Origin: Burkholderiales bacterium
GTDB lineage: Bacteria; Pseudomonadota; Gammaproteobacteria; Burkholderiales; Ga0077523
Direction of reading: 5' to 3'
Length of the DNA: 64,000 bases
NCBI GenBank assembly: GCA_019747905.1
Contig: JAIEQG010000087.1
Coordinates: 71,905-135,904 of the forward strand
A program made the position numbers and the translations under genes. Below, in pieces: positions 2,273-50,475 of this stretch. The first letter of the stretch is position 1, and the number at the start of each line of letters is the position of its first letter. Below the pieces are notes generated by a model. It did no database searches, was not told the origin of the DNA, and worked only from the letters and a program-made list of their open reading frames with translations.

Positions 2273-2307
2273 TTCAGCCCTTGCGGCCTCTCGGGAGGAA
2301 CTTCACG

Positions 2308-3066: not shown

Positions 3067-3134
3067 GGGTTTTCGTGGTACTTGAGGTTTTTGGAATTAT
3101 CATACTGAGCCACAAGGAAAAAGACGAGACGACA

Positions 3135-3920
3135 ATGTTACGGATCCCGGCCTTTCAGCGGCTCGCCAGGCACCTCACGTGTGCGGCGGCCGTTTCAATG
3201 CTCTTTTCGGCGGTTCCCGGAGTTTCTCAAGCCGAGGAGGATCCGGACGCTGCCGCCCGCGCCATCCTCCAGAGGTCCGACGAGATCCGCTTCCCGGTGA
3301 CGGGCTTCGAAGTGGCGGTCCGGATCCGCTCGATAGACGCGGGCGGCGCCCCGGAGGTGCGCGAGTTCAAGGTGCTGTCAAAGGGCAACGAGAACACCAT
3401 CGTCCTCACCACCTCGCCGGCGTCCGAGCGAGGGCAGATCCTGCTCATGAAGGCCCGCGACCTCTGGTTGTTCGTGCCAAACGTGTCGCAGCCCGTGCGT
3501 CTGTCGCTGTCGCAACGCCTGACGGGGGTGGTTTCCAATGGAGACATCGCCCGGGCCAATTTCAGTGGCGACTACACGCCCAAGCTGGTCGGGAGCGAGA
3601 CCATCGAGGGGCAGGCCTACCATGTGCTTGAGCTGACGGCGATCGATCGTGCGGTCACCTACCAGAAGGTCAAGTATTGGGTGAAGCAGTCCAGCAACGC
3701 GCCGCTCAAGGCCGAGTTCTACTCGCTGTCGGGGCGTCTCCTCAAGACCTGCAGCTACGAAGACTACAAGCAGCTCGGCGGCAAGGTGCGGCCGACCAAG
3801 CTCGTGATGGTCGACGCGCTCAAGGAAGAGACCCGGTCCTTCATGGACTACGAGGACATGAAGAATCGCGAATTGCCGGACAAGGTGTTCACCAAGGAGT
3901 ACTTGAAGAAGCTGGAGTGA
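3135..3920 (+). CDS. LolA-like outer-membrane lipoprotein-sorting (carrier) protein family
   Basis: I chose the ATG at 3135 (MLRIPAFQRL...AVSMLFSAVPGVSQA signal peptide) rather than the listed 3075. The mature part (ILQRSDEIRFP..GFEV.V.I......EVREFKVLSKGNENTIVLTTSPASERGQILLMKARDLWLFVPNVSQPVRLS..QRLTG.VSNGDIARANF) matches my memory of the LolA_like / lipoprotein-sorting family. Confidence 0.65.
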   Translation: MLRIPAFQRLARHLTCAAAVSMLFSAVPGVSQAEEDPDAAARAILQRSDEIRFPVTGFEVAVRIRSIDAGGAPEVREFKVLSKGNENTIVLTTSPASERGQILLMKARDLWLFVPNVSQPVRLSLSQRLTGVVSNGDIARANFSGDYTPKLVGSETIEGQAYHVLELTAIDRAVTYQKVKYWVKQSSNAPLKAEFYSLSGRLLKTCSYEDYKQLGGKVRPTKLVMVDALKEETRSFMDYEDMKNRELPDKVFTKEYLKKLE

Positions 3921-4017
3921 CCCGCGGGGTCGATTTTCGCCTCGGGAGCGCCGCGATCAGCGGCGCTGCCGGCCCGTCCGTCCCAAGAAACCCCGGTTGC
4001 GCGCCGTGGATCACGCC

Positions 4018-6816
4018 ATGACCAGAAATTCAGCCCTGCTCGCTGTTGCCCTGCTGCTAGCCTGCCCCGCCGGGGCCTGGGCGCGCGAGGACAAGGCCGC
4101 AGGCTTCTACGAAGACGCCCTGACCCGCCTGGATAAGCAGGACGAGGCCGGCGCGATCATCCAACTCAAGAATGCCTTACAGGCCGACCCGAGAATGGTC
4201 TCGGCACATCTACTGCTCGGCCGCGCCTATCTCCAGAGCGGTGTGCCCGACGCCGCCCAGGAATCGCTCGAAACGGCGCAACGGCTGGGTGCGGATCGGA
4301 GCCAGGTGGCGCTTCTGCTCGCGCGGGCCATGGTGGATCAGGGTAAGGCGAAGGAGGTCATCGATCGCTTTCCACCGGAAGTCGTGCCGCCCAACGAGCG
4401 GGTGGACCTGTTGGTGGTACGGGGCGAGGCATACCGGCAACAGGCAGACATGCGAGCGGCAACCCAAAGCTACGAAGCTGCGCGGGCGTTCGATCCGCTT
4501 TCCGTTACTGCCGCCCTAGCCTTGGCCGATGCCTATGCCAAGCAGGGGCGAGAAGCGGAGGCGGGCAGACTTGCCGACGAAGCGGTGTCCCGGTCGCCAG
4601 GCGAGGCCCGCGTCTGGTACACGAAGGGTTCGGTGTTGCACGCTTCGCGCAACTTCGACGGAGCCTTGGCAGCCTATGCTCAGGCGATCAAACTGCAACC
4701 GAAACATGTCGATGCTCGTCTTGCCCGTGTCTCCTTGTTGTTCGATCTGGGACGGGACAAGGAGGCGCTGCCCGATCTCGACTACCTCAAGAAGGAAGTC
4801 CCGCAGGAGCCCCGCGGTGCCTACTACCGGGCGCTGAATGCGACGCGGACAGGCGATGCGAAGGGGACGCACGACTCGCTGACCGAGGTTACCGCGCTGC
4901 TCGATCCGGTCCCGGCCGACGTGCTGCGCGCCCGGGCTCCTGAGCTGTTGATGATCGGGGCACTTGCCCATCACGGTCTGAACGAGCAGGAAAAGGCCAT
5001 TCGCTATCTGGAAGCCTTCCTGCAGGGCAGCCCCACAAGTGCCGGGGCTCGCAAGCTCCTGGCATCGATTCACATCGGAAGGCGTGAATTCAACCGTGCA
5101 ATCGACATACTCGAGGTGGGGCAACGACATGCCCCGAGGGACCCGCAATTGTTGGCGCTGCTGGCTAGCGCCTACATGGCAGTCGGCAAGAATCAGATGG
5201 CCGCGCGTTTCCTCGAGCGCGCGATGGAGAAGGGCGGCGATTCGCCCGAGGTGAATGCAACCCTCGGCTTCAACCTCCTGCAGAATGGTCAGCAGGACCT
5301 CGGCATCCAGTACCTGCAGAAGGCGTTCGACAAGGACCCGACGCGCGGCAACCTGGGCACGTCGCTCGTGGCACTCTACATTCGGCGATCCGAGCCCAAG
5401 AAGGCTCTGGCGATAGCGGAACGGCTACTGCAGCGCCAACCCGACAATGCCATGGTCCTGAACTTGATGGGGGCAGCCAAGTCCGCACTCGGCGACAAGG
5501 CCGGTGCGCGGGTTGCCTATGAAAAGGCGGCAAAATCTGACCCCGGCTTGTCCGCGGCGCGCTTGAACCTGGCCAAACTTGATCTGGCCGATCGCAATTT
5601 CGACGCCGCCCGAACGCGGCTTCTGGCACTGAACAAAGCCCAAGCCAAGGATCCTCAGCCTATGTACGAGCTGGCGCGGCTCGAGAGCATGGCCGGACGG
5701 CCAGTCGAGGCGACCCGCTGGCTCGAGCGGCTGCGGGCGGCTGATCCGGGACATATTCCTGGTGGGTTGCTGCTTGCGGAACTCTTCATGCAGGGCGAGC
5801 AGCCAAAGAAGGCGCTGGAGGTCCTCCAGGCGCTGCAGCCAGGGGCTCAGAACAATCTCGACGTCAATGGAGCGCTGGCGGCGGCGCTCATCGTTAACGA
5901 CGATCCCAAGGGTGCCCAGACGATATTGGCCCGAATGACCCGTGTGGCCGAGTACGACCCGGCGTGGCAGCATCGCATCGCGCAGTTGCAGGTTCGGGCA
6001 GGCAACACGCAGGGAGCTGTCTACAGCCTCGACAAGGCGCTGGAGGCAGACACCAAGTATCTACCCGCGCGCGTATTACAAGTGGAGATCGACGTCAGTG
6101 AAAACCGACTCGACCAAGCCGAGTCGCGGGCGCGTGCTTTGTTGGCCACGCATCCGGCAGAGGGCGAAGGCTATCGGCTTCTAGGAGACGTGTCTGTTCG
6201 GCGCGGGAGGTTCCAGGATGCCGCGGGTTTCTACCGTACTGCGCTAGGCAAGGCGCCCGTGACACCGAACGCCCTACGGGTCTACAACGCCGTCCTTGCC
6301 AGTGGTGACGGCAAGGGAGCTACGGCGTTCCTCGAAAACTGGATCAAGTCGCATCCTGACCCGATTGCCGGTCAAGCGCTTGCCGAAGGGTATCTCCGAC
6401 TCGGAGACCTTCAGGCGGCCAAGCTGCGATACGAGGCGCTGGTCAAGTCAGGCAACGAGGTACCCGGTGTCCTGAACAATCTCGCCATCATCTCCGATCG
6501 CCTCGGGAACGGGGAAAAGGCCGTCGAATATGCCCAGCGCGCCGTCAAGATAGCGCCCGGCAACCCCGGGATTCTCGATACATTGGGCTGGCTGCTGGTC
6601 AGACGAGGGGATTTCGACGCCGGACTCAAATCCCTGCGCGAAGCCAGAGTTCGTGACCCACGCAATCCCGAGATACGATTCCACCTGGCCAGTGCCCTGG
6701 CGATGGGCGGCCGCAACGTTGAGGCCCGTCAAGAACTTACGCTGCTCCTGTCGGATTCACCATCGTTCCCGGGCGCCAGCGATGCCCGTGCGTTGCTGAA
6801 AGAACTCGGAGGTTGA
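4018..6816 (+). CDS. prsT: PEP-CTERM system TPR-repeat lipoprotein (PrsT-like)
   Basis: About 930 aa made almost entirely of TPR-like helical repeats (recurrent A..Y..AL..-P....A...LA motifs). The N-terminus MTRNSALLAVALLLAC has a lipobox (LLAC). Size, lipobox and all-TPR build match TIGR02917 PrsT, and PEP-CTERM genes are nearby. ATG 4018 is preferred over the listed TTG 3997. Confidence 0.7.
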   Translation: MTRNSALLAVALLLACPAGAWAREDKAAGFYEDALTRLDKQDEAGAIIQLKNALQADPRMVSAHLLLGRAYLQSGVPDAAQESLETAQRLGADRSQVALLLARAMVDQGKAKEVIDRFPPEVVPPNERVDLLVVRGEAYRQQADMRAATQSYEAARAFDPLSVTAALALADAYAKQGREAEAGRLADEAVSRSPGEARVWYTKGSVLHASRNFDGALAAYAQAIKLQPKHVDARLARVSLLFDLGRDKEALPDLDYLKKEVPQEPRGAYYRALNATRTGDAKGTHDSLTEVTALLDPVPADVLRARAPELLMIGALAHHGLNEQEKAIRYLEAFLQGSPTSAGARKLLASIHIGRREFNRAIDILEVGQRHAPRDPQLLALLASAYMAVGKNQMAARFLERAMEKGGDSPEVNATLGFNLLQNGQQDLGIQYLQKAFDKDPTRGNLGTSLVALYIRRSEPKKALAIAERLLQRQPDNAMVLNLMGAAKSALGDKAGARVAYEKAAKSDPGLSAARLNLAKLDLADRNFDAARTRLLALNKAQAKDPQPMYELARLESMAGRPVEATRWLERLRAADPGHIPGGLLLAELFMQGEQPKKALEVLQALQPGAQNNLDVNGALAAALIVNDDPKGAQTILARMTRVAEYDPAWQHRIAQLQVRAGNTQGAVYSLDKALEADTKYLPARVLQVEIDVSENRLDQAESRARALLATHPAEGEGYRLLGDVSVRRGRFQDAAGFYRTALGKAPVTPNALRVYNAVLASGDGKGATAFLENWIKSHPDPIAGQALAEGYLRLGDLQAAKLRYEALVKSGNEVPGVLNNLAIISDRLGNGEKAVEYAQRAVKIAPGNPGILDTLGWLLVRRGDFDAGLKSLREARVRDPRNPEIRFHLASALAMGGRNVEARQELTLLLSDSPSFPGASDARALLKELGG

Positions 6817-6896
6817 GTGTCGAAAGTGTTTACAGCGCTATTCATGCAACCGCATTGATGGCCGACAAATCCTTGTTGTTTTGAGAGATTTTGCAC

Positions 6897-6912
6897 TGGC
6901 TTGTGGCTTGCT
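6897..6912 (+). promoter_or_regulatory. Putative sigma54 (RpoN) -24/-12 promoter of PEP-CTERM gene 1
   Basis: TGGCttgtggcTTGCT compared with consensus TGGCACG-N4-TTGCW, with correct GG/GC spacing. It ends 47 nt upstream of GTG 6959, with a GGGGGA RBS in between. The same element occurs at the same distance before the second PEP-CTERM gene (49493-49508). Confidence 0.65.
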
Positions 6913-6958
6913 TTACGGGTGGCTAGCCAAACCACGAATTCTGGGCGGGGGATAGACC

Positions 6959-7873
6959 GTGAATCTGAAGCGAATCTTTGTGACGTCGATCGGCGTGCTG
7001 GCACTGGGGTCTGGCGGCCTGGTGCAAGCGGCTACGACTTATAACTGGACCTGGTCCACGACGCTGTCTGGGAACCCACCCGCCGACAATACGACTTGGA
7101 CTCCATCGACAACGACCGGCGACTGGTGCAGCGGAATGAATTCCGCGTCCATGTCGACCTACGGCAATTGCGCGCGCTTCGGTGGTTCCGAGACCCCCGC
7201 AGGTTCCCTGACCAACGTCCTGCAGGTCAAGGCCTACTCGAACACAGGGGCAGGCAGTTCTCAGAGCACCTACGACATCGAAAGTGCCTACCTCGCCTTC
7301 TGGGGTTCGAGCGGCATGGGCGTTGTCAATCGGAATACAGGCGGTTCGGATCCGCCCGAGGGTGCAACGGGCGGGCCAACTCCGAGCAGCACCTCGCCCG
7401 AGCATTCGATCGACAACAACGGCCGCTACGATATGATTCTGCTGACGTTCGATCGTGCCGTCAGCTTGACGGGGGTCGATATTGGCTGGAGCGAGAACGA
7501 TAGCGACATCACCGTGATGGCACTCGGTGGCAGCTACTCGGAACTGGCGGGCAAGGATTACGGCAGCCTGGCCGCAGCGGGCTGGTCGTATGTGGGCCAT
7601 TTCGCCAACGCCGACGTTTCCGGGGCCTACTCGATCGCATCCGCCACGCAGGGGATCGAGTCGCGCTATTGGCTGGTAGGTGCGCGCAACCCGGCAGTTG
7701 GTGGTGCGTCGGGTGATTCCTACAAGGATTACATCAAGATCAAGGGTTTCACCGCCACGGAGAAGTACGGCAACAAGGTGCCCGAACCTGGCGCAATGTC
7801 GATAGCCTTGATCGCACTGGCCAGCGGTGCCTTCGTCACACTACGTCGTCGTAGCCGGCGCGTGGCGGACTAA
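6959..7873 (+). CDS. PEP-CTERM sorting-domain protein (exosortase substrate) 1
   Basis: Signal peptide MNLKRIFVTSIGVLALGSGGLVQA. The C-terminus ...KVPEPGAMSIALIALASGAFVTLRRRSRRVAD has the VPEP motif, a TM helix and an Arg cluster, which is the PEP-CTERM signature. The N-terminal region is Thr/Ser/Trp-rich. Confidence 0.85.
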   Translation: MNLKRIFVTSIGVLALGSGGLVQAATTYNWTWSTTLSGNPPADNTTWTPSTTTGDWCSGMNSASMSTYGNCARFGGSETPAGSLTNVLQVKAYSNTGAGSSQSTYDIESAYLAFWGSSGMGVVNRNTGGSDPPEGATGGPTPSSTSPEHSIDNNGRYDMILLTFDRAVSLTGVDIGWSENDSDITVMALGGSYSELAGKDYGSLAAAGWSYVGHFANADVSGAYSIASATQGIESRYWLVGARNPAVGGASGDSYKDYIKIKGFTATEKYGNKVPEPGAMSIALIALASGAFVTLRRRSRRVAD

Positions 7874-8016
7874 CAGCCGGATCTCGACGACGGCGGGTCG
7901 TTCATTTCGGTACGACCTGTAAATGCTTGTGGCCGGCCGCCGCCCGCCCATATGACTTTCAGGTACGTGAACAGCGGAAGCTAGACTTCACTTAGACCTA
8001 TAGTCAACCCGGCGCC

Positions 8017-8908
8017 TCACAAAGCGTCCCTTTCAAAGGCCTCGGGACTGACGCCACCTAGATGGCTGTGACATCGGGTTCGATTGTAGAAGATCTTGAT
8101 GTAGTCGAAGACGTCGGTCCGGGCCAGCTCCCGGGTCTTGTAGATGCGCTTGCCGATGCGCTCCTTCTTCAACCTGCTGAATAAGGACTCGGCGACGGAA
8201 TTGTCCCAGCAATTGCCGCGACGGCTCATGCTCGGCTCCAGTTGATGAGCTCGGCAGAAGCGCTGCCAGTCATCGATGCCGTATTGCGTGCCCTGTCGGA
8301 ATGGACGATGACCGGCTGTGCTGGCTTGCGCCGCCACAGCGCCATCAGCAGAGCATCCAGGACCAGTTCGCGTGCCAGGGTCGGCTTCATCGACCAGCCC
8401 ACGACCTTGCGGGCATACAGGTCCAGGACAGCGGCCAGACAGAGCCAGCCCTGGCAGGTTCGGATGTAGGTGATGTCGGTAACCCAGACCCGGTCCGGCG
8501 CATCGACCGTGACCTCGCGATTGAGTCGGTTCGGCGAAAGGAGCGAGGGCCGGCCGGCCACCGGGCGGGGAGCCTTGTAGCCGCGCAGCGCCCTGATCTT
8601 GTTGACCCGCATGATACGAGCGACGCGATGCTTGCCTCAGGTGTCGCCGGCTTCACGCAGATCGCCGAATACCCGCGGCGAGCCGTACACGCCGCCGCTG
8701 GCTGCATACGAATCGCGAATGACGCCCAGCAGTCGCTGGTCGTCGCTCGCCCGATCCGACAACGGCTTGTGCAACCATCGATAGAAGCCGGCAAGTGCCA
8801 CCTGCAGAACCCGGCACATCGTGGCGATGCGGAATTCATGGCGGTGATCGTTGATGAATCGGTACTTTACTCGGGCTCCTTGGCAAAGTACCGCGCGGCC
8901 CTTTTTAG
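8017..8908 (-). pseudogene. IS3-family orfB (DDE transposase) with one nonsense codon and one frameshift
   Basis: An in-frame TGA at 8639-8637 sits where family members have Cys (...REAGDT*GKHRVARIMR...). A 1-nt deletion near 8293-8299 changes the expected HSDQGTQY to HSDRARNT, and the correct frame resumes as GTQYGIDDWQRFCRAH... Confidence 0.8.
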
Positions 8909-9151
8909 GATGTCGCGCTCCTCTTCCGTGCGGCGCAGCTGCGCGCGCAACTTCAGGATGTCGCTCTTCGCCTCGATCAGATCGGCCGCCTGCTTCTCCG
9001 TCTTGTCCGGCGTCACCGCCTTCACCCACTTGTACAAACTGTGGCTGGACACGCCCAGCCGCGCCGAAATCTCAGAGACGCAATGGCCCCGATCAAGAAC
9101 CTAGCGGGCTACCTCTTCTTTGACCTCCGGTGCAATTCTCTGGGTACCCAT
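8867..9151 (-). pseudogene. IS3-family orfA with an in-frame nonsense codon
   Basis: Reading from ATG (9151-9149) gives MGTQRIAPEVKEEVAR-TAG(9103-9101)-VLDRGHCVSEISARLGVSSHSLYKWVKAV...AKEPE. The premature stop falls at codon 17, inside the HTH region. Confidence 0.8.
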
Positions 9152-9418
9152 GCACTCCCCATCCTATGCTTGAACCATAGAACCGAAATGCCTACACAGC
9201 CGGCGAAGTCCGACCCTACCGAATCAATGTTGCTACCGGCGATCGCCGCTGCGGCGGCGATCGGCGAGAGACGATCAAAGGTGTCTGCTCGGCGAACGGT
9301 GGCATAGAGCCACCAATTCGGCCCCGCAGATCCCGACGCGAGGGGCTGGTACGGCGCAACCGATTCGGCTAGGATTGCAGGCTTCTTTTCATCGCTGAAT
9401 CTGCGGTGAAGGATCAGA

Positions 9419-9494
<76 letters not shown>

Positions 9495-9566
9495 TAACTC
9501 CTGAAAAGGCTGCGGTGCGCAGCAGCCTCTTCGACGGGTAGAGAGTTTCACGAGACCGACGCCTAC

Positions 9567-10925
9567 GTGAGAAACGCGCGTCTTCGCGAAAGGATCGGCT
9601 CGATCCTTTCGTCGCTGATCCTTGGGGCGCTGCTTGCCTTCATTGTCCACTACGCATACTGGGACACAGGGGCTTTCGGCGACGAAGGATCGTCGTGCAC
9701 GCTCGGGCAGGAGATCCTCCACGGCCACGTGCCGTATCGGGACTATTTCAACGAGAAGATGCCGCTCCAGTACGTCTGGACTGCGGCGGTGATGAGCGTG
9801 TCGACGACCGGGGTGGCCGGTGCCCGGATAGCTGCCGCATTGAGCCTCACGGGCGTGTTCGCACTTATCGTCCATGTCCTGCGATCCGGCGTTTCCGCGT
9901 GGAGCAAGTGGCCGTGGCTGGTGGTGGCCATTCTCGTCTGCGCCGGCATGTGGGGGTATAACAATACGGCCGAATCTAGCCTGGCTCTACTGTTCGGCGC
10001 GGCCGCCTTATTGATCTCGCGGCGAGACGGTCCGGTGGGTTACTCCGGTGCCGTCATGCTCGGCGCACTCCACGGTCTCGCGATCGGCTTTCGTATCACC
10101 AGTGTTGCGGCCGCAATTGTTGTGCTGGGGTCGCCGTGGATCGCGGGGCATCGAACGGCTTTCGCGATAGGTGTGTCCGGCGCGGTCGTCGGATGGACCG
10201 CGTTGCTGTCCGCGATCGGCGTGCAGCCGTCGGATCTCGTGGCGGCCATGTTCTTTCACCTGGGATCCGACGAGGTCGTCCACTACTTCAGAGGCATTGA
10301 GCCAGAGGAACGGATCTGGGCGCTGGCCTGGGTCGCAGCCGGAACGGGGGCCTTGGTCGCTTGCAGCGGTCGGTATCATGCTGCTTGGGCAGTCGCCTGG
10401 CTGCTCGCGCTGGCGATTCCGTTCTTCGCGAGGATGGATGCATTCCGGCTGTGGCCATCGACGGTCGCGGCGGCGGTGTTGCTCTTCCCTTGGCTGATGC
10501 GGGCGAGATTGGTGTTCGGTGCGATAGTGGCGTTCGGTGTCGCAACCCCCCTAATCTATTCTCTGAAAGCGCCCAGCACGTTCGATCACTACTCGGAGAT
10601 CACGACCTACGTGCGCAGCCGAACCGGGCCGCAGGACTCGATCTGGGTCGCCCCGTGGAGCCCCTATGTGTACTGCCTTACCGAACGGGAGACCGCGACC
10701 CGCTACTACTTCCTGCTCCCTTGGATCGCACAGGACACAGTCAAGGCAGAGATCCTGCACGACCTCGAACGTAACCGCCCGGCGCTCATCGTCGACGTTT
10801 CCCGCGGGCGACGTTCGCTCGCGACGGAGCTCCCCGGACTCCAGGAACTACTGGATGCGCGTTACGAGCCGCCCGTCCGGACGCCAAGGGCCGTCTACTA
10901 CCATCGCAGGCAGCATGATGGTTGA
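9567..10925 (+). CDS. Polytopic membrane protein, GT-C fold glycosyltransferase-like (ArnT/PMT_2-like)
   Basis: 452 aa with many predicted TM helices. The first loop has GDEGSSCTLGQEILHGHVPYRDYFNEKMPLQYVW, which fits the DE...G..PY.D.F..K.PL.Y.W pattern of family 39/83 lipid-linked sugar transferases. GTG start. Confidence 0.55.
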   Translation: MRNARLRERIGSILSSLILGALLAFIVHYAYWDTGAFGDEGSSCTLGQEILHGHVPYRDYFNEKMPLQYVWTAAVMSVSTTGVAGARIAAALSLTGVFALIVHVLRSGVSAWSKWPWLVVAILVCAGMWGYNNTAESSLALLFGAAALLISRRDGPVGYSGAVMLGALHGLAIGFRITSVAAAIVVLGSPWIAGHRTAFAIGVSGAVVGWTALLSAIGVQPSDLVAAMFFHLGSDEVVHYFRGIEPEERIWALAWVAAGTGALVACSGRYHAAWAVAWLLALAIPFFARMDAFRLWPSTVAAAVLLFPWLMRARLVFGAIVAFGVATPLIYSLKAPSTFDHYSEITTYVRSRTGPQDSIWVAPWSPYVYCLTERETATRYYFLLPWIAQDTVKAEILHDLERNRPALIVDVSRGRRSLATELPGLQELLDARYEPPVRTPRAVYYHRRQHDG

Positions 10926-10995
10926 AGGAGAGCGTCGCTTCGCCAATTGCTGAGGCCGCCCGTCGATGGTCCACGGTCACGGTACGATGTACCCC

Positions 10996-12012
10996 ATGCG
11001 AGTAATTCTGCGAGTGCTGGCTGCGCTGTTCGCCTTCGTCGTCCTGCCTTGCGAGGCTGCGCCGGAAAAGCCCCGGGTCGTCCTCGCCGTCGGCGGCAAG
11101 ACCACGCTCTACTACCTGCCGCTCGCGCTTGCCGACAGGCTCGGCTACTTCCGCGACGAAGGCCTCGAAGTCGAGATCAACGATTTCCCTGGCGGATCCA
11201 AGGCGCTGCAGGCGCTGATCGGCGGGAGCGCCGACGTGGTGTCCGGTGCCTTCGAACACACCATCACCATGCAGACTCTCGGCCAGAAGGTGCAGGCCTT
11301 CGTGCTGCAGAACACGAATCCCGGCATCTCGCTCGGCATCGCGCGGGCACAGGCCGCCAATTACTCGTGGCCCAAGGATCTGAAGGGGATGAAGATCGGC
11401 ATCAGCGCGCCGGGGTCGAGCACGCAGATGCTGGTGAACCACCTGCTCTCGTCGGTGGGACTCACGGCCGACGATGTCTCCTGGGTCGGCGTGGGAACGG
11501 GCAGCACCGCGGTCGCGGCGATGCGCACCGGTCGCATCGACGCGCTTTGCAGCGCCGAGCCCGTCATGTCGCTGCTCGAGCGCTCCGGCGATCTCAAGGT
11601 GGTGGTCGAGACCACCACCGACGCTGGTGTGCGGTCCGTGTTCGGCGGGCCGCTGCCGGCCGCGACACTGTACGCGAAGGCCGCGTTCATCCAGGCCAAT
11701 CCCGGCACCATTCAGGCGTTGACCAACGCCATGGTGCGCGCGCTCAAGTGGTTGCAGAAGGCCACGCCGGACGAAGTGGCCGACGCGGTGCCGCCCGAGT
11801 ATCTGCTCGGTGATCGCGCGCTCTATCTCGCCGCCTACGAGAAACTGCGCAACACCTACTCGAAGGATGGTCGTATTTCCAAGGTGCTGGTGAAGAACAG
11901 CTACGAAACGCTGCTCAAGCACAACACGGCGGTGCGGCGGGCGCCGGTGCTGTGGCTCGAGCAGACCCACACGAACGCGTTCGTGGAGCAGGCGCTGAAG
12001 AAGTTTCCGTGA
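10996..12012 (+). CDS. ABC transporter substrate-binding protein, NitT/TauT (NMT1/SsuA-like) family
   Basis: Signal peptide MRVILRVLAALFAFVVLPCEA (ATG 10996; the listed ORF starts at 10966). The mature part ...YYLPLALADRLGYFRDEGLEVEINDFPGGSKALQALIGGSADVV... is typical of sulfonate/nitrate/taurine-type binding proteins. It is followed by a cognate ATPase and permease. Confidence 0.75.
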   Translation: MRVILRVLAALFAFVVLPCEAAPEKPRVVLAVGGKTTLYYLPLALADRLGYFRDEGLEVEINDFPGGSKALQALIGGSADVVSGAFEHTITMQTLGQKVQAFVLQNTNPGISLGIARAQAANYSWPKDLKGMKIGISAPGSSTQMLVNHLLSSVGLTADDVSWVGVGTGSTAVAAMRTGRIDALCSAEPVMSLLERSGDLKVVVETTTDAGVRSVFGGPLPAATLYAKAAFIQANPGTIQALTNAMVRALKWLQKATPDEVADAVPPEYLLGDRALYLAAYEKLRNTYSKDGRISKVLVKNSYETLLKHNTAVRRAPVLWLEQTHTNAFVEQALKKFP

Positions 12013-12821
12013 GCGCCGCCGGCGAAGCGCTGCGCCTCGAACGCATCACCTGCGCTTTCACCCGGCGCGATGGTACGCGCTACGAGGCTGTTCGCGACGC
12101 GACGCTCGCAGTGGGCGCGCATGAGTTCGTCAGCGTCGTGGGGCCTACCGGCTGCGGCAAGACGACGCTGCTCAACGCCGCGGCGGGTCTGCTTTCCCCG
12201 GTGAGCGGCCAGGTGCTGGTGCAAGGTGTCCCGTTGACCGGCATCAACGCCGAAGCCGGCTACCTGTTCCAGGCCGATGCGCTCATGCCGTGGAAGACGG
12301 CGCTCGACAACGTGGCAGTCGGCCTCCTGCTGCGCGGAGTCGCGGCGCGCGAAGCTCGCGAACGCGCCCGCGAGTGGCTCGGTCGCGTCGGTCTGCGCGC
12401 GTTCGCCGATCGCTTTCCGCACGAGCTCTCCGGTGGCATGCGCAAGCGCGTGGCGCTCGCGCAGACGTTGATTCTCGATCCGAAGCTGCTGCTCATGGAC
12501 GAGCCGTTCTCGGCGCTCGATGTACAGACCCGCAGCCTGATGGAGAACGAGTTGCTCGCGTTGTGGCAACTCGACCGCAAGTCCGTGCTGTTCGTCACGC
12601 ACGATCTGGAGGAGGCGATCGCATTGTCCGATCGCGTGATCGTGCTGTCGGCCGGACCGGCGTCGCGGCCGGTCGCGGAGTTCATCATCGACCTGCCGCG
12701 CCCTCGCGACGTGGCCGAAGTGCGCCTGGTGCCGGAGTTCCTCGACGTGCACCGCCGGATCTGGGCGACTCTGCGCGAGGAGGTGTCGCGGGCGCACGCC
12801 GCCTCGGCGGAAGCGGCGTGA
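12009..12821 (+). CDS. ABC transporter ATP-binding protein, NitT/TauT family
   Basis: The GTG at 12009 overlaps the upstream stop (GTGA), indicating translational coupling. Walker A GPTGCGKTT, signature LSGGMRKRVALAQTL, Walker B LLLMDEPFSALD, H-loop FVTHDLEEA. Confidence 0.9.
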   Translation: MSAAGEALRLERITCAFTRRDGTRYEAVRDATLAVGAHEFVSVVGPTGCGKTTLLNAAAGLLSPVSGQVLVQGVPLTGINAEAGYLFQADALMPWKTALDNVAVGLLLRGVAAREARERAREWLGRVGLRAFADRFPHELSGGMRKRVALAQTLILDPKLLLMDEPFSALDVQTRSLMENELLALWQLDRKSVLFVTHDLEEAIALSDRVIVLSAGPASRPVAEFIIDLPRPRDVAEVRLVPEFLDVHRRIWATLREEVSRAHAASAEAA

Positions 12822-13585
12822 TGCGCCTGCGCGCCTGGCAACTCGCCTTGCTCCTGGCGCTGCTGCTTCTGTGGCACGTGCTGGTGCAGATCGAGTGGTT
12901 GCCGAGATTCTTCTTCGGCGAACCGCTCGCGGTCGCGCGCCGCATCCTGGCGTGGTTCAGGAGCGGCGAGATCCTGCCCCACCTCGCCGTGACTCTGGGC
13001 GAGACGGTGGTTGCCTTCATCGTGGGCACCGCCGGTGGCGTCGCGGCGGGGCTGTGGCTGGGCATCTCGCCGTTCGCGGCGCGCCTGCTCGACCCGTACA
13101 TCAAGGGCTTCAATGCGATGCCACGGGTCATTCTCGCGCCGATCTTCGCGGTGTGGTTCGGGCTCGGTATGACCGGCAAGATCGTGCTGGGCATCACGCT
13201 CGTCTTCTTCGTGGTGTTCTTCAGCGTGTTTCACGGCGTGCGGGACGTGAGCCCGGTGATCGTCGCCAACGCCCGCATGCTCGGGGCGTCGCGCACCGGT
13301 TTGCTGAAGCATGTCTACCTGCCGAGTGCGCTGTCGTGGGCCTTCGCCAGCCTGCATACGGCGGTCGGCATGGCGTTCGTGGGCGCCGTGGTCGGCGAAT
13401 ACCTGGGGTCCGCGCGCGGGGTTGGTTACCTCATCTTGCAGGCCGAAGGCACTTTCGACATCGATACCGTACTGGCCGGCGTCGTGGTTCTGACGATCTG
13501 CGCGCTGGGCCTCGACAAGCTGGTTTCCATGGCCGAAACCCACTTGTTGCGCTGGCGCCCCGAATCCCGGCGCGACGAAGCTTGA
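12821..13585 (+). CDS. ABC transporter permease, NitT/TauT family (BPD_transp_1)
   Basis: The ATG at 12821 overlaps the upstream TGA by 1 nt. There are about six hydrophobic segments and an EAA-type loop ...ANARMLGASRTGLLKHVYLPSAL... This is only the distal part of the listed 12290..13585 ORF. Confidence 0.85.
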   Translation: MRLRAWQLALLLALLLLWHVLVQIEWLPRFFFGEPLAVARRILAWFRSGEILPHLAVTLGETVVAFIVGTAGGVAAGLWLGISPFAARLLDPYIKGFNAMPRVILAPIFAVWFGLGMTGKIVLGITLVFFVVFFSVFHGVRDVSPVIVANARMLGASRTGLLKHVYLPSALSWAFASLHTAVGMAFVGAVVGEYLGSARGVGYLILQAEGTFDIDTVLAGVVVLTICALGLDKLVSMAETHLLRWRPESRRDEA

Positions 13586-13905
13586 TGGCGGGCTCGACTC
13601 CGCAGAAGAAGATGTTTTCTATCAAATGGTTGAGATGTTTTGTCAGCGCCGCCGACAGTGCAAATTTCGATGCCGACCGCATAGCGAAAACCTGCCGGAT
13701 CGGTTAGATTCGAAGCGCATGGATCGGGGCTTTTTCGACAGTGCCAGCGCCCCATTCCGGCTCGATCAGGGAATAGAAGCACGGCAGACCCGACCGTCCT
13801 CGACGGTCCCTCAAACCGGCCTGCCGCATAACCAATAACGGGGGTGACCGCCCCGAACACGCCGCAGGGGCGGCCCCGAAACCCTGCGGACGTTGGAGAC
13901 CCGCC

Positions 13906-16900
13906 ATGATCTGGCGATTCGACTCGATCCGTTCCCTCATGGCGCCAGTGGGTACCCGTCGGCGCAAGGGTCAGAAGGCGGGAGCCGCTTCCGCCGATGC
14001 CCCCAATCGAGACAGGAAGGCGCCACCGTTCCGCCGCCGGCCCCTGTTCGAGGCACTCGAGCAGCGGCTGCTCATGTCGGCCGACACCGTCCAGATCATC
14101 CAGGGCGGCACCCAGGTGGACGGCAACATCACCGCCGCGGGCGAGACCGACCGTTACTCGTTCACGCTCACCGAAGCGAAGCAGCTCTACTTCGATGCGC
14201 TGACCGACACGCCCTTCAACTGGTCGCTCGAGGGGCCTGCCGGCACGCTGGTGAATGCGCGCAGTTTCCAGGGCTCCGATGCCCAGGACCTCAGCACTTC
14301 GCCGGTCCTCGACTTGAAACCCGGCGACTACATGCTCAGCGTCGACGCCAACCTCGACGCCACCGGTGCCTATGGCTTCCGCCTGCTCGATCTGGGTCAG
14401 GCCGGCACACTGACGCCGAACATCACGGTGTCCGGGCAACTCGATCCCGGCCGCGAGACGGATGCCTATCGGTTCACCGTGCAGGAGGGCGAGCGCTTCT
14501 TCTTCGATTCGCGGTCGGTGTCGAACACCAATGGCCAATGGCGCCTCGTCGATCCGTTCGGCGACCAGGTGTTCGCGACCAATATCGGCACCGACATCGA
14601 GCCGCCGGTCCTGACCAAGCCGGGTACGTACACGCTGTTGCTCGAAGGGCGACGCACCCAGGCCACGCCGATCAACTACCAGTTCAACGTGCAGAAGGTG
14701 GTCGACGAGAACGCAGCGCTCACGCTCGGCGCCCTCGTGAACGGCAGCATCGCGCATGCGGGCCAGCAGGACTTCTATTCGTTCGCGCTCGCGCAGCGCT
14801 CGCGCGTGTATCTCGACTCGCTCACGAACACCGGGATCCACTGGACGCTGACCGGGCCCAGCGGCGTGATCGTCGATTCGCGTGGCCTCAGTTCCACGGA
14901 CTCGAGTACCGTCGGATCCAATCCGGTGCTCGATCTGGTGGCCGGGAGCTACACGCTCCGGCTCGATGCTGCCGGCGATGCGACCGGCGACTACGCATTC
15001 CGCGTGCTGAACCTCTCGGCGGCCCCGACGCTGGTGCCGCTGCCCAGCGGCTCCACCCCGACCACTGCGACTCTCAATCCGGGTGCGAGCACGCTCCTGT
15101 ACGGCATCGACGCAGCCGCCGGCGACCGTCTGTTCTTCGATCGCCAGAGCCAGAGCGGCGGTACCGTCCACTGGCGTCTGGTCGATCCCTACGGCGGCCT
15201 GCTCTTCTCCAGCAATTTTTCCACGGACGTCGGCAATCTCACCTTGACCGCCGCCGGGCGCTACACGCTGCTGATCGAAGGTCATCCGAGCAACGCCGTA
15301 CCGATCGATGTCGTCTTCAATGTCGAGCCGCGCGGGAACCTCGTCGCGGAACGCACCACCTCGTTCGGCGACGAATTCGACGGCACGCTGAGCAGCAACT
15401 GGCGGCTGGAAACGCCGCGCGATGGCCAGGCGTACCTCGGTACGCCGAACTATCGGTTCGAGACGCTCGATGGCGCCCAGGTGCTGCGTCTCGACAACGA
15501 TCTCAACAACTCTCAGCGTGTGGCCTTCGGTTCCACCAGCGTGTTGCCGTCCGCGGCGAGCTTCCGCTACGAACTGCGCTTCAACACGCTCACCCAGTCC
15601 TTCGCGACCGGGGTCGAAGGGCTGCTCGAATTCTGGTTGGTCGACGAGGCCGACCCGAGCCGGTTCATCGCGGCCGCGGTCTATGGCGGACCCACCGGGC
15701 TCGACCGGCGCCTGTTCTCCAACGCTCCGCAAGGCGGCGGCTTCGTGAATCAGACGCTCGCCTTCGCCGACAACACGTGGTACCGCGCCGTGATCGAAGG
15801 GTCGCCGACGCAGGCCATGAAGGTGTCGATCCTGAGCGACGCCGGCACGGAGCTCATGAGCCGGACCTTCACCGTCGGCACCGACCTCTTCGCGAACGGC
15901 TTCCGCGTGGGCTTCGGGCAGTCCACGTCATCGCCGAATCGACTCGCGCCGATGGACGTCGCGATCGACTACGCGCGCGTGACCGCCACGCCGCTTGCCA
16001 CGACACCGCTGGTGTTCGACACCCTCACCACAGGGACGCGTACCGTCGCCAACCAGCGCGACGTCTATACCTTCAGCGTCGCCGCCGACACGATCGTCTA
16101 TTTCGACACACGCACCGACACCGGTGCGATCAACTGGACTCTCAAGGGGCCGTCCGGGACGCTGGTCGCGAACCGTCCGCTCTCACAGTCCGACGCGCAG
16201 GACGGCCGACCGTTCTACCGGCTCGTGGCGGGCGAATACACGCTCACCTTCGCCGGCACCGGCACCGGCGCCTACACCTTCAAGCTCGGCAACGTGGCGA
16301 GCGGCACACCGATCACGCTCGGGACATCGGTCAGCGGTGTGTTGAGTCCCGGCAACGAAACCGACGTCTACCGCTTTGCTGCCAATGCCGGCGAACGCCT
16401 CTACGTCGACATGCAGACCGTGCAGAACGGCGACGGCTGGTGGCGGCTGCTCGATCCGAACGGCGACGAGGTATGGTCTGCCGGGATCAGCACCGACAGC
16501 GGCGTGCTGGCGATGCCGCACACGGGCACCTACACGCTGATGCTCGACGGCCGCCGTTACTACACGGTGGACAACGCGTACCGGTTCAACGTCTCCCGTG
16601 TCGTCGATACCACGCGGGCACTGGTCCCCGGTGAAAGCCAGGGTCTCGGACCCTACTGGTCGACGGGGCCGACCGGCAACGCGCTCGAGTTCGCAGATCT
16701 CGACTATGTCGAGGTGCCCCACGGCAGCGCCACCAATCTTGCGGGCAGCATGACGTTCGAGGCGCGCGTACGCATCGACAGCTTCGTCAACACGTGGACG
16801 CCGATCCTCTACAAGGGTGCCAACAGTCCCGGTACCGGCAATGAGTGGCAGTTGCGGACCTTCTCGCTGTACGTCAACAGCGATGGCCGACTGTCGATGA

Positions 16901-49413: not shown

Positions 49414-49492
49414 TGGGGTTCAGCGTCGAGCAATTTGACAAATGGGGGCAACGCGGGACAATCAATCTTTAATAATCAGTGCATTATGGTCT

Positions 49493-49508
49493 TGGCCCGT
49501 CGATTGCT
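49493..49508 (+). promoter_or_regulatory. Putative sigma54 (RpoN) -24/-12 promoter of PEP-CTERM gene 2
   Basis: TGGCccgtcgaTTGCT compared with TGGCACG-N4-TTGCW, with correct GG/GC spacing. It ends 48 nt upstream of ATG 49556. An AT-rich tract (aatcaatctttaataatc) lies just upstream. It mirrors 6897-6912. Confidence 0.7.
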
Positions 49509-49555
49509 GCTAGAATAAACCTATCGAAATGTGAGAATCACAAGGTCAGATTAAA

Positions 49556-50212
49556 ATGCGGCTCTTCAAGTGGATTTCGGCTGTTCTCGGAACGTTTCTG
49601 CTGGCCCCGGCAAACGCGTTCGCCTTCCCTGTCGACGTCTCGTTCACCAGATGCATCTACGACGCGGCGCCGACGCCGCAGTGCATCGATGTCGTCCCGA
49701 CGCTTCCGTATGTGAACGAGGTACTCAACATCACATTCTCGGTCACCGGTGGCGCCAGCGGCATCAGCGGACTGTACGTTGACCTCATCCCTGACACGCT
49801 CTTCCCTTCCTTCGACGAAAGCAACCTCGCTTACATGAAGAAAGCGAACGACTCCGGTGCAGCGACTGACACGGGGTACGATTACCTACCAGGCGTTTCC
49901 GTCCAGTGGCGTCTGTATCCTAAAGCGGTCGGCGCGATCTTCAACGTCGCCGACGGTGGGATCGTCGATATCGTCTTCACAGAAATCCTGGCCAAGGCGG
50001 ATCCCGCGAGGCCCTTCACGTCGGTGATGGGCTTCCAAATCTGTACCGTTAATCCTAACGGGGACTCGACGTGTGAGCCGGGTTCGGTTCCTGTCAGCTT
50101 CGTGGTTCCGAACGGCGCCAACAGGGTTCCCGAACCCACCTCTCTGTGGCTGGTGTTGGCTGCGCTCGTGGCGGGCGCCGCGGTATTCCGCAAGGGTTCG
50201 AACCGCTCCTGA
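49556..50212 (+). CDS. PEP-CTERM sorting-domain protein (exosortase substrate) 2
   Basis: Signal peptide MRLFKWISAVLGTFLLAPANAFA. The C-terminus ...ANRVPEPTSLWLVLAALVAGAAVFRKGSNRS has VPEP, a TM helix and a basic tail. Its codon usage is visibly less GC-rich than that of the neighbouring genes. Confidence 0.85.
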   Translation: MRLFKWISAVLGTFLLAPANAFAFPVDVSFTRCIYDAAPTPQCIDVVPTLPYVNEVLNITFSVTGGASGISGLYVDLIPDTLFPSFDESNLAYMKKANDSGAATDTGYDYLPGVSVQWRLYPKAVGAIFNVADGGIVDIVFTEILAKADPARPFTSVMGFQICTVNPNGDSTCEPGSVPVSFVVPNGANRVPEPTSLWLVLAALVAGAAVFRKGSNRS

Positions 50213-50241
50213 CGAACAAGAAGCGAGCGATGTGCACACTG

Positions 50242-50268
50242 TCGGCGCCGTAAGGCGCCGATTTTTTT
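50242..50268 (+). terminator. Rho-independent terminator after PEP-CTERM gene 2
   Basis: TCGGCGCC-gtaa-GGCGCCGA is a perfect 8-bp GC stem followed by TTTTTTT, 30 nt after the stop codon. Confidence 0.85.
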
Positions 50269-50475
50269 GCTCACGAAAGCCATGCTTCCGTCGTTCGAGA
50301 TCAATGCCCTCAGGGGCATTGCCGCGCCAGGGCGGCTGTCGATGCTGGGCCGTTCCAGTGGTTCCCGAGACACGGCTTTCGCGCCATGGTCCCAGAGGCC
50401 CGGCGCCACGAGGTGCGCTGCCGGCATGCCCTATAATTCAGATCGTTATCCCTGTCGATCGCCGTCGGACAGCCC

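Follow-up and report, generated by a model that had tools for sequence, protein, structure and literature searches.

The 11,835-residue giant protein encoded in this 64,000-nucleotide stretch of Burkholderiales DNA (the window) and the small PEP-CTERM protein encoded directly after it may constitute a two-part surface-anchoring system, in which an exosortase-anchored cohesin docks a giant adhesin. From sequence profiles and structure models we give this reading about even odds. We found no published description of such an arrangement.

The giant gene occupies positions 13906-49413 of the plus strand (35.5 kb) and encodes a protein of the LEPR-XLL type, whose N-terminal LEPR-XLL motif (LFEALEQRLLMSAD; 14044-14085, residues 47-60) scores 23.2 bits with NF012209 (cutoff 17). 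Profile searches identified PPC, SO2946-like_C, three Laminin_G_3, ten or more CARDB and nine He_PIG domains, together with Big_9/Cadherin_4/5, PKD and two RHS/YD repeats. As far as sequence can tell, these non-enzymatic Ig-like, lectin-like, CARDB and cadherin-like repeats fit an adhesin or matrix scaffold. A giant homologue of 11,185 residues is annotated on the contig of locus L004. Near the C-terminus, a conserved beta-module ('LPDFMRGPGQ...LVFSIDYDPRL...'; 48469-48876, residues 11522-11657) sits where an X-module would, directly before a dockerin (48877-49074, residues 11658-11723). The module is kept from the window as far as Accumulibacter, and profile searches gave it no family assignment. 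The dockerin is recognized by Pfam Dockerin_1 (26.5 bits versus a cutoff of 22.9, or 20.9 bits for a shorter fragment), its C-terminal profile A6 matches solved dockerins (4fl4_A at E 7.6e-4 and ten or more others), and both of its Ca-binding loops of the DxDxDxxxxxxD type, DLDGDAKLTSAD and DFNVDGRINAWD, are readable in the sequence. The protein ends in ...SLLARLVRGVARLGR before the stop codon, and inspection of the translation shows neither a PEP motif nor a TM helix at this C-terminus, as expected from the earlier note, which had described the giant as lacking a PEP-CTERM tail.

Only 142 nt separate the giant's stop codon from the ATG of gene 2 (49556-50212, plus strand). Its 218-residue product comprises a predicted Sec signal peptide (residues 1-23, ending in ...ANAFA before F), a cohesin-like beta-sandwich (residues ~26-183) and a PEP-CTERM sorting signal (residues 191-213, tail VPEPTSLWLVLAALVAGAAVFRKGSNRS), which scores 19.8 bits with TIGR02595 (cutoff 16). 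The protein reaches only 20.8 bits with the PepA model (cutoff 80), NCBIfam has no model for the small family, and Pfam Cohesin does not reach the window's protein at all. The resemblance of its sole globular domain to cohesins emerges from a chain of profiles and from the predicted fold. Using the domain alone, with the signal peptide and tail cut off, hhalign connects the window's subgroup to the rest of type A (97.6%, E 3.6e-12) and the rest of type A to type B (90%, E 1.7e-6), with reversed-sequence controls at 0.1%. The type B profile in turn matches the solved cohesins 5nrm_A and 5nrk_A (E 3.7e-4) as well as 6kg8_A and 5lxv_A, and Pfam PF00963 is precomputed on type B members. When the profile is restricted to type A members, a search of PDB sequences yields no cohesin at E<=10, and Pfam Cohesin matches just 1 of 16 type A members, weakly (E 0.018).

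The AF2 model of gene 2 has a pLDDT of 83.5 and a pTM of 0.71, obtained from an alignment in which type A sequences are combined with those of type B, which are true cohesins; the model from four close sequences is poor (pLDDT 33.7). When the first model is compared with the PDB by Foldseek, cohesins account for ten of the first 20 matches and 16 of the first 50, including 2jh2 (TM 0.59), 3ul4 (0.51), 4dh2, 4ums, 6kge, 5nrm, 5lxv and 4iu3, at modest E-values (1e-4 to 1e-3) and rmsd values of 4.5-8 Å. Other beta-sandwiches, namely the SpaD pilin, Als adhesin, PsaA and integrin, also match. We refer to the domain as cohesin-like on the strength of this profile chain and fold.

The two genes are linked well beyond the window. 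When the search starts from the small protein, the C-terminus of a giant is found directly upstream of the small gene in every locus (L001, L003-L010, L021 and L066, and L002 and L067-L070). With the giant's C-terminal beta-module as query, 44 loci were recovered, 35 of them with readable downstream DNA. A cohesin-like PEP-CTERM gene follows the giant in nine of these, 106-257 nt past its stop codon or overlapping it (L058, L062), and in two more the slot is filled by another PEP-CTERM gene. Unrelated PEP-CTERM proteins occupy it in L028 and L051. The pair occurs in two clades with giant modules just 31-43% identical and with different flanking genes, hemA in one and DUF3467/TIM/PGK in the other. 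In L022, two genes that each end in the module and a dockerin flank the small gene. Gene 2 is thus a partner gene conserved beside giant homologues in both of these divergent clades, and the comparison of orthologue neighbourhoods for recurrent PEP-CTERM linkage, which the earlier note had suggested, favors its idea for this gene. Between the window and L001, the small protein is 36% identical and the dockerin module 78%, and this much faster divergence of the small protein counts against a docking pair; relative to L003 and L066, hemA is 96% and 93% identical and the small protein 58% and 31%. Faster change in the small protein than in hemA is a pattern typical of an exposed surface protein. 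The sources of the related loci include bioreactor sludge and Accumulibacter assemblies.

It is possible, if on the unlikely side, that the giant and gene 2 are functionally coupled by something other than cohesin-dockerin binding. The small protein might then belong to the matrix, assist maturation or assembly, or act as a co-adhesin, and the dockerin might find its partner in the beta-module before it, in a cohesin encoded elsewhere in the genome, in another giant molecule or in the DUF3467/HlyD/M50 machinery of related loci. Such a coupling would suit the majority of homologous giants: about 20 of the 35 keep the dockerin module but have DUF3467 + GAF-HlyD + PqqD/M50-HlyD genes in place of a neighbouring cohesin gene, so that the dockerin needs another partner or role there. 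It would also suit type B giants, which bear their own cohesin after the dockerin, a competing partner, and the unrelated PEP-CTERM proteins of L028 and L051; moreover, type A is assigned to the cohesins by indirect evidence. A cohesin-like motif ('VNVP...LVFSIDYDPRL') is visible by eye in the pre-dockerin module, but profile comparison reveals no similarity of this module to cohesins. However, the small protein has a single globular domain, which does connect to cohesins by profile chain and fold, and the simplest reading of a cohesin encoded 142 nt away from a dockerin is that the two are partners.

Upstream of gene 2, a candidate PrsR enhancer site (motif 1, GTCGAGCAATTTGACA; 49425-49440) precedes a sigma-54 -24/-12 element (TGGCCCGTCGATTGCT; 49493-49508) located 63 nt before the ATG. 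The same combination precedes PEP-CTERM gene 1 (GTCGAAAGTGTTTACA at 6819-6834; TGGCTTGTGGCTTGCT at 6897-6912, 62 nt before the start), all on the plus strand, in line with the sigma54-type promoters noted earlier for both genes. The motif 1 pattern GTCG-N6-TTKACA has only these two occurrences in the window and agrees with the TTTACA motif 1 of Haft 2006, a cis site with a phyletic profile equal to that of PrsK/PrsR/PrsT (PMC1569441). Sigma-54 sites of equal quality number only 10 on both strands of the window, and those at 6897 and 49493 are the only intergenic ones lying about 60 nt upstream of a same-strand gene; a loose pattern with one mismatch is not above chance (5 found versus 4.4 expected). 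At the orthologous loci L022, L023 and L008, the intergenic region also contains GTCG-N6-TTGACA, and the sigma-54 element keeps its position (58-63 nt) while the surrounding sequence diverges. Genes 1 and 2 have in common candidate sites that match the published PrsR/sigma-54 bipartite promoter. An intrinsic terminator directly after gene 2 (50241-50272, plus strand; a 9-bp stem with 7 GC pairs, then TTTTTTG) makes it a single-gene unit. The region upstream of the giant contains no sigma-54 site and no motif 1.

Gene 1 (6959-7873, plus strand) encodes the exosortase-dependent surface protein XDP1 (NF041927, 182.6 bits versus a cutoff of 125; PEP-CTERM tail VPEPGAMSIALIALASGAFVTLRRRSRR). It follows prsT, the XrtA/PEP-CTERM TPR lipoprotein gene (4018-6816, plus strand; TIGR02917, 597.3 bits versus 312.2 over residues 12-918). 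The prsT ORF opens at TTG 3997, with ATG 4018 as the likely start, followed by a lipobox, 'LLLAC'; the protein is annotated as 932 aa on other contigs. These are ordinary XrtA/PEP-CTERM components, and a PEP-CTERM gene adjoining prsT is already known from Aquincola (PMC9850573). The earlier description of the region holds in most respects: prsT, both PEP-CTERM genes, the 35.5-kb ORF and the 142-nt gap lie where it had placed them, a six-frame regex scan of the window found no further genuine PEP-CTERM ORF, and exosortase, prsK and prsR are absent among the window's genes. The interruptions that it listed are also present, as a fragmented IS3-family element (8017-9052, minus strand), tRNA-Phe (9419-9494) and an ABC importer (substrate-binding protein, 10966-12012; ATPase, 11952-12821; permease, ~12818-13585). 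Its 'GT-C' label for the gene at 9567-10925 finds no backing, as the gene matches nothing in Pfam at E<=10 or in NCBIfam at E<=0.01.

We consider it improbable that the whole 47-kb stretch from prsT and XDP1 to the giant and gene 2 is one PEP-CTERM/EPS island, with the giant as a general scaffold for exosortase-processed proteins. The promoter elements common to XDP1 and gene 2, the requirement of prsT for floc formation in Aquincola (PMC9850573) and the suitability of the giant's lectin-like and Ig-like repeats for matrix binding would all agree with it. However, prsT and XDP1 are located 6 kb upstream of the giant, past the IS3 remnant, tRNA-Phe, the function-unassigned gene and the ABC importer, the giant itself has no PEP-CTERM cis site, the 64 kb hold no exosortase, prsK, prsR or EPS gene, and regulon members need not adjoin. 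The earlier note had tied the giant to exosortase-processed proteins as a matrix scaffold; the tie stands for gene 2, its conserved neighbour, and nothing shows a link of the giant to prsT or XDP1. The non-enzymatic repeats fit the scaffold role, and the missing sigma-54 site and motif 1 speak against the wider reading. That the adjacency is inherited gene order without functional meaning, gene 2 being one more PrsR-regulon unit, is already disfavoured and very improbable: PEP-CTERM genes are mostly transcribed singly, each from a sigma-54 promoter of its own (PMC1569441), gene 2 comes with both a promoter and a terminator, and synteny among several type A loci is weak evidence because they come from close relatives (hemA 93-96% identical), but the pair persists across divergent clades with different flanks, all placeable small-family members sit after a giant, L022 has module-bearing genes on both sides, and the rarity of the small family (19 representatives among 1.84 billion) makes chance co-location unlikely.

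The anchoring system proposed here is best read as a Gram-negative analogue of ScaE-CttA. In Ruminococcus flavefaciens, ScaE, which consists of one cohesin and an LPXTG signal for sortase, binds the adhesin CttA by its C-terminal X-module-dockerin (PMC4266597; PDB 4iu3). As in ScaE-CttA/ScaB, a small one-cohesin protein with a C-terminal sorting signal would partner a large adhesin, and the giant, like CttA, has a dockerin at its end, preceded by a beta-module. The pulling geometry would also be the same, with the adhesin N-terminal to the dockerin and the anchor C-terminal to the cohesin, and 4iu3_A appears in the Foldseek hits of the gene 2 model. Unlike the LPXTG signal, which serves sortase and peptidoglycan, that of gene 2 is PEP-CTERM, for exosortase in Gram-negatives; the host is an uncultured member of the Burkholderiales rather than a cellulolytic Firmicute, the client is a LEPR-XLL repeat protein that lacks CBM and glycoside hydrolase domains, PrsR/sigma-54 control is predicted for the anchor, and its cohesin similarity is detectable by profile chain and fold only. 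With prsT and an adjoining PEP-CTERM gene, the window resembles XrtA systems with PrsK/PrsR/PrsT, and gene 2 resembles the PepA-type single-gene units of Zoogloea and Aquincola, with motif 1 and a sigma-54 promoter (PMC1569441, PMC9850573); Aquincola pepA is RpoN1-dependent (PMC9850573). Order and habitats (sludge, Accumulibacter loci) match those of floc-associated PEP-CTERM systems. Unlike known PEP-CTERM proteins, which have no defined binding partner, gene 2 carries a cohesin-like passenger paired with a dockerin protein.

In its thousands of residues, its Ig-like and cadherin-like repeats and its likely role in adhesion or biofilm, the giant resembles RTX/T1SS adhesins of the LapA, MpIBP and SiiE type. 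In contrast to these, domain searches detected neither RTX nonapeptide repeats nor an N-terminal retention module, the N-terminus is LEPR-XLL and no T1SS genes adjoin; retention would depend on a dockerin and a separate anchor protein rather than on a plugged TolC-like pore. Peer et al. reportedly surveyed in 2009 the non-cellulosomal cohesin and dockerin modules scattered over bacteria and archaea, and mostly treated them as isolated cases of unknown function. The modules described here likewise belong to an organism without a cellulosome, but the cohesin-like and dockerin genes lie side by side, their pairing recurs, and the anchoring signal gives the pair a direction.

This pairing is a more specific relation than the one that the earlier note had hypothesized. 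In the proposed mechanism, the small protein would be exported and its tail processed by the genome's exosortase, implied to be of the XrtA type by the presence of prsT. It would then be fixed at the cell surface or within the exopolysaccharide layer, where its cohesin would bind the dockerin of the giant, itself presumably secreted. With a dockerin end and a cohesin-like PEP-CTERM neighbour, the giant would probably be attached to the cell or to the slime matrix around it, much in the way that Gram-positive bacteria tether cellulosome components. Because only the anchor has a PrsR-box/sigma-54 promoter and a terminator, it would be anchoring, rather than synthesis of the giant, that is switched on with the PEP-CTERM regulon, XDP1 included.

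The giant open reading frame (13906-49413, plus strand) runs uninterrupted for 11,835 residues and, as the earlier note had read it, carries no PEP-CTERM tail: its C-terminus (...LVRGVARLGR, then the stop codon) has neither a PEP motif nor a TM helix. At the N-terminus, 'RRRPLFEALEQRLLMSAD', residues 47-60 match the LEPR-XLL domain NF012209 (23.2 bits; cutoff 17), and no classical hydrophobic signal peptide is seen there in the translation. The body is built of non-enzymatic modules (PPC, SO2946-like_C, three Laminin_G_3, at least ten CARDB, about nine He_PIG, Big_9/Cadherin_4/5 or 'tandem-95', and PKD), and long stretches match no family. Two RHS/YD repeats lie amid the Ig-like repeats (37729-37830, residues ~7942-7973; RHS_repeat 34 bits, TIGR01643 21 bits), with no RHS core or toxin tip detected around them. 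Toward the C-terminus, a conserved beta-module beginning with LPDFMRGPGQ (residues 11522-11657) directly precedes a dockerin (PF00404, residues 11658-11723), which scores 26.5 bits (cutoff 22.9), a shorter fragment reaching only 20.9 bits. This dockerin has two canonical calcium loops, DLDGDAKLTSAD and DFNVDGRINAWD, and the module profile A6 matches over ten dockerins of solved structure, 4fl4_A most strongly (E 7.6e-4). The beta-module was also considered as a cohesin, a reading that found no support from Pfam, the PDB profile search or hhalign. A 900-residue C-terminal query returned mostly generic tandem-95/Big_9 matches, and only four proteins (P0005, P0026, P0063 and P0090) span most of it, of which P0005 and P0026 were used further.

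Gene 2 (49556-50212, plus strand) starts 142 nt past the giant's stop codon and encodes a 218-residue protein, in which a Sec signal peptide (ending in ANAFA, followed by F) precedes a domain of ~160 residues and a PEP-CTERM tail (TIGR02595, 19.8 bits against a cutoff of 16) closes the chain. A six-frame scan leaves it and gene 1 as the only genuine PEP-CTERM ORFs of the window, and the PEP motif, TM helix and basic cluster are visible in both translations. The gene 2 family is rare, since of 1.84 billion cluster representatives only 19 belong to it at E<=0.001, and is covered by no NCBIfam model. An assignment to PepA was rejected, the score being 20.8 bits against a cutoff of 80 and due essentially to the tail alone. 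We distinguish type A, which includes the window protein, from type B (P0143-P0150), an Accumulibacter-like group in the same genomic position. The type A tail (P0126-P0140; 50126-50209 in the window) is unusually uniform (VPEPATLWLAxAALIAGGxVFRxxSKRS), with passenger domains only ~25-35% identical, and differs from the tail of gene 1 in the same window. This uniformity may reflect either a dedicated exosortase that recognizes the tail or a constraint beyond sorting.

The passenger domain of the gene 2 protein is connected to cohesins through a chain of profiles. Some type B members contain a Pfam Cohesin domain (PF00963); the type B relative at locus L002 scores 19.4 bits, below the cutoff of 24.1, one of 16 type A members matches (E 0.018), and the window protein itself has no PF00963 match at E<=10. 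After removal of signal peptides and tails, hhalign linked the window subgroup to the rest of type A (97.6%, E 3.6e-12) and the latter to type B (90%, E 1.7e-6), against 0.1% for reversed-sequence controls. The type B profile in turn matches the solved cohesins 5nrm_A and 5nrk_A (E 3.7e-4), as well as 6kg8_A and 5lxv_A. A profile of type A only finds no cohesin among PDB sequences at E<=10, so the cohesin matches of the mixed profile (E ~1) cannot be credited to type A. The AF2 model of the gene 2 protein has a pLDDT of 83.5 and a pTM of 0.71 with a 25-sequence alignment that includes true cohesins; with the four close homologues only, the model is poor (pLDDT 33.7). In a Foldseek search of the PDB with the former model, cohesins are the commonest top matches, accounting for 10 of the best 20 and 16 of the best 50, among them 2jh2 (TM 0.59), 3ul4 (0.51), 4dh2, 4ums, 6kge, 2vn5, 5nrm, 5lxv and the ScaE cohesin 4iu3. 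For the nine-stranded jelly-roll beta-sandwich of cohesins, these scores are only 0.40-0.59 in TM and 1e-4 to 1e-3 in E, other beta-sandwiches match too, and the alignment behind the model had contained true cohesins. Homology to cohesins is thus likely, not proven, and we call the domain cohesin-like because of the missing Pfam match, the null result with the type A profile, the mixed AF2 alignment and the scores of other beta-sandwiches.

The pairing of the two genes was followed across related metagenomic loci (L-numbers). Seen from the small protein, every readable locus has a giant C-terminus directly upstream. The pair is kept in close relatives (L003-L010 and L021), including an 11,185-aa giant gene, and in L066; in L001 the giant C-terminus is 72% identical to that of the window, and type B loci L002 and L067-L070 likewise have a giant C-terminus upstream of the small gene. 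Seen from the giant, a search with two patterns of the conserved module ([LM]PDFMRGP and LVF[ST]IDYD) gave 44 metagenomic loci; 35 loci, the window included, are readable for at least 800 nt past the giant stop. A cohesin-like PEP-CTERM gene follows in nine of the 35, at 106-257 nt or, in L058 and L062, overlapping the giant; three of these are type A (the window, L022 and L023) and six are type B (L024, L026, L027, L058, L061 and L062). The comparison of neighbourhoods that the earlier note had suggested does reveal recurrent PEP-CTERM linkage, with a gene of the gene 2 type behind giant homologues in two divergent clades. Two further loci (L028 and L051) have a PEP-CTERM gene in the same slot, whose product shows no similarity to the cohesin-like family.

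Some relatives carry additional genes next to the small gene. In L022, an 827-aa protein encoded after it (12187-14670) ends in the same beta-module and dockerin (LPDFIRGPGQ..., E 3.5e-33), so that the anchor gene is there flanked by two possible clients. The same gene (819-827 aa, with Cadherin/Big_9/He_PIG/PKD) is present in L003-L006, which together with L022 are the closest relatives, and is missing from the window. In L001 (3225-7682) and L023 (12245-20614), the small gene is followed by one for another LEPR-XLL giant ('RKRALFEPLESRLLLSAD'), which is longer than 2,789 aa and runs off the contig.

We propose that the giant and the gene 2 protein are client and anchor joined by cohesin-dockerin binding, a reading to which we give a probability of roughly one half. 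The gene 2 protein would be exported by Sec, its PEP-CTERM tail would be handled by the exosortase that prsT implies, and it would come to lie either at the surface of the cell or within the exopolysaccharide layer; the giant's dockerin would bind its cohesin-like domain. Binding, processing and final location are all steps that we infer. Divergence is much faster in the small protein than in the dockerin module, and the positions that usually determine dockerin specificity (10, 11, 13, 14 and 17 of each repeat) vary, which is compatible with co-diversification, without proving it.

The two proteins might instead be coupled by some route other than direct cohesin-dockerin binding, which we consider unlikely, though it is the likeliest of the alternatives. 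In its favor, most homologous giants have the dockerin module with no neighboring cohesin, which means that in those loci the dockerin must bind a different partner or serve a different role. In about 20 of the 35 loci, the giant is followed by a DUF3467 gene, usually together with a GAF-HlyD gene. Loci of this kind are L031, L037, L041, L044-L050, L053, L055, L056 and L064, mostly with a GAF-HlyD adaptor of ~640 aa; in L037 (9254-13940), the sole annotated one, a PqqD/M50-like metalloprotease-HlyD protein of ~750 aa comes next (daptide_HExxH-like, 130 bits, below the cutoff). The DUF3467, GAF-HlyD and M50 genes may act together in processing or exporting these giants; DUF3467, GAF-HlyD and PqqD/M50 motifs are absent from the window. 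The type B giants also lend weight to this alternative in having their own cohesin after the dockerin, the HMM of the type B small proteins (cohB) matching L058 (E 2e-5) and L062 (E 5e-7); with both modules, they could chain together. Type B giants in general (L002 at ~3200-3998, L024, L026, L027, L058 and L060-L062) extend 250-300 residues past the dockerin, and the L002 tail looks cohesin-like by eye.

Regulatory sites set gene 2 apart from the giant. A loose search of the window for TGGCAC-N5-TTGC found five sites against 4.4 expected, which is not above chance. When a site must keep the GG-N10-GC frame and agree with the consensus at 9 or more of 11 positions, only ten remain on both strands, and two of them lie 62-63 nt before the two PEP-CTERM start codons. 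These are the -24/-12 elements at 6897 and 49493, in agreement with the sigma-54-type promoter that had been proposed for each PEP-CTERM gene. In L022, L023 and L008, the element before the small gene is likewise placed 58-63 nt upstream, despite divergent surroundings. Farther upstream, GTCG-N6-TT(T/G)ACA (motif 1) occurs before both genes and nowhere else in the window, at 6819-6834 for gene 1 (spacer of 62 nt to the sigma-54 element) and at 49425-49440 for gene 2 (52 nt); because the pattern was derived from these same two sites, what really supports it is that L022, L023 and L008 have it as well. Proteobacterial PEP-CTERM genes have a bipartite site, in which a motif 1 that contains TTTACA is separated by 32-92 nt from a sigma-54 motif 2 (Haft et al., PMC1569441), and both genes have this arrangement upstream. 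The phyletic profile of the site is that of PrsK, PrsR and PrsT (PMC1569441); given these coinciding profiles, prsT and the cis site suggest that PrsK and PrsR may be encoded in the genome. Within the 64-kb window itself there is no exosortase, prsK or prsR, as had been stated; to the left, the further contigs with the ABC ATPase gene stop at the edge of the window. A strong terminator (50241-50272) follows gene 2, which is therefore a single-gene unit, and neither a sigma-54 site nor motif 1 lies upstream of the giant. Since, of the pair, only the anchor has a PrsR/sigma-54 site, retention of the giant would be co-regulated with gene 1 and the rest of the PEP-CTERM regulon.

The hypothesis of the earlier note, in its wider reading, takes the whole region from prsT to gene 2 as one island, in which the giant is a matrix scaffold working with exosortase-processed proteins. 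The pairing of giant and gene 2 is real, recurrent and suggestive of a mechanism, a link of prsT and gene 1 to the giant is unsupported, and we regard the single island as improbable. The part with prsT and gene 1 is ordinary: prsT (4018-6816, plus strand, in an ORF opening at 3997 with 4018 as the likely ATG) scores 597.3 bits for TIGR02917 (cutoff 312.2), and gene 1 (6959-7873, plus strand) scores 182.6 bits for NF041927, the NCBIfam equivalog 'exosortase-dependent surface protein XDP1' (cutoff 125). In Aquincola, the PEP-CTERM gene adjoining prsT is RpoN1-dependent and prsT is required for flocs (PMC9850573). Directly upstream of prsT (671-3920) are genes for a DUF1302 outer-membrane protein (minus strand), a LolD/MacB-like ABC ATPase (minus strand) and a LolA-like/TP_0789-like protein (plus strand), an order that recurs on further contigs from this organism (L071-L073). 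The interruptions listed between prsT and the giant are present: an ABC importer (substrate-binding protein, ATPase and permease), tRNA-Phe (9419-9494, plus strand), and, adjoining the latter, a decayed IS3-family element on the minus strand (8017-9052) with OrfA intact (61 aa) and OrfB in three fragments. Lying between the prsT-XDP1 pair and the remaining region, this element may mark an old insertion point. The label of a GT-C gene for 9567-10925 (plus strand), directly past the tRNA, is unsupported, with no Pfam match at E<=10 and no NCBIfam match at E<=0.01; the hydrophobic product of 452 aa is probably a polytopic membrane protein. The window has a GC content of ~66%, and beyond gene 2 it holds hemA (50476-51729), prfA, prmC, an RND efflux pair (AcrB 54373-57624, MFP 57642-58820) and two tandem PAS-GGDEF-EAL genes for c-di-GMP turnover (58855-61602 and 61640-63913, both on the minus strand), the latter ~9 kb downstream of the adhesin locus, past the RND pair.

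That the adjacency of giant and gene 2 is meaningless synteny is very improbable, because the adjacency outlasts the flanking gene order: between paired clades, the giant module is only 31-43% identical, and the flanks are hemA-prfA-prmC in one and DUF3467/TIM/PGK in the other. Functional coupling of the two genes is, in our judgment, quite probable. Compared with the window, hemA is 96% identical in L003 and 93% in L066, where it adjoins the pair, and the small protein 58% and only 31%, which suggests, on these identities, diversifying selection on a surface-exposed protein or its replacement.

The closest known case to the proposed anchor and client is found in Ruminococcus flavefaciens, where ScaE, with a single cohesin and an LPXTG sortase signal, holds the C-terminal X-module-dockerin of the adhesin CttA so firmly that rupture takes 600-750 pN (PMC4266597). 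The layout is the same, an adhesin with beta-module and dockerin plus a cohesin with C-terminal sorting signal, with PEP-CTERM/exosortase in place of LPXTG/sortase and the giant's pre-dockerin beta-module in the position of the X-module. The pair does not correspond to a cellulosome, as the giant has no CAZyme or CBM, the partner has a single cohesin-like domain, and the window holds no scaffoldin; nor does the giant belong with the RTX/T1SS adhesins, since over its whole length there are no RTX repeats (HemolysinCabind) and no retention module. It also has no toxin domain. Our literature search returned nothing combining PEP-CTERM with a dockerin or a cohesin domain; LEPR-XLL is mentioned only in passing, in two papers of the literature searched, and PEP-CTERM proteins, with no cohesin or dockerin, figure in a secretome study of Accumulibacter granules. 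The components are all of known kinds, and an exosortase-sorted cohesin-like anchor adjoining a dockerin-ended giant appears to be undescribed.

Floc formation in wastewater bacteria needs PEP-CTERM proteins, none of which has a known binding partner or mechanism, and cohesin and dockerin modules have no established role outside cellulosomes. A cohesin-like domain with an exosortase signal beside a dockerin-ended giant links both problems in a simple model, in which a client is held by an anchor that PrsR/sigma-54 would control. More tentatively, and at slightly less than even odds, exosortase-sorted single-cohesin proteins may serve as surface or EPS docks for dockerin-ended LEPR-XLL giants in floc-forming Betaproteobacteria including Accumulibacter, with more than one client in some relatives (L022), and be switched on via PrsK/PrsR and sigma-54. 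If true, the anchor and client would provide the first defined molecular partner for a PEP-CTERM protein and a Gram-negative counterpart of sortase-anchored ScaE, that is, a case of non-cellulosomal cohesin-dockerin anchoring. It would also explain how some 10,000-residue adhesins stay on Gram-negative cells or in the matrix, and would bear on how granules and flocs form in activated sludge, those of Accumulibacter among them.
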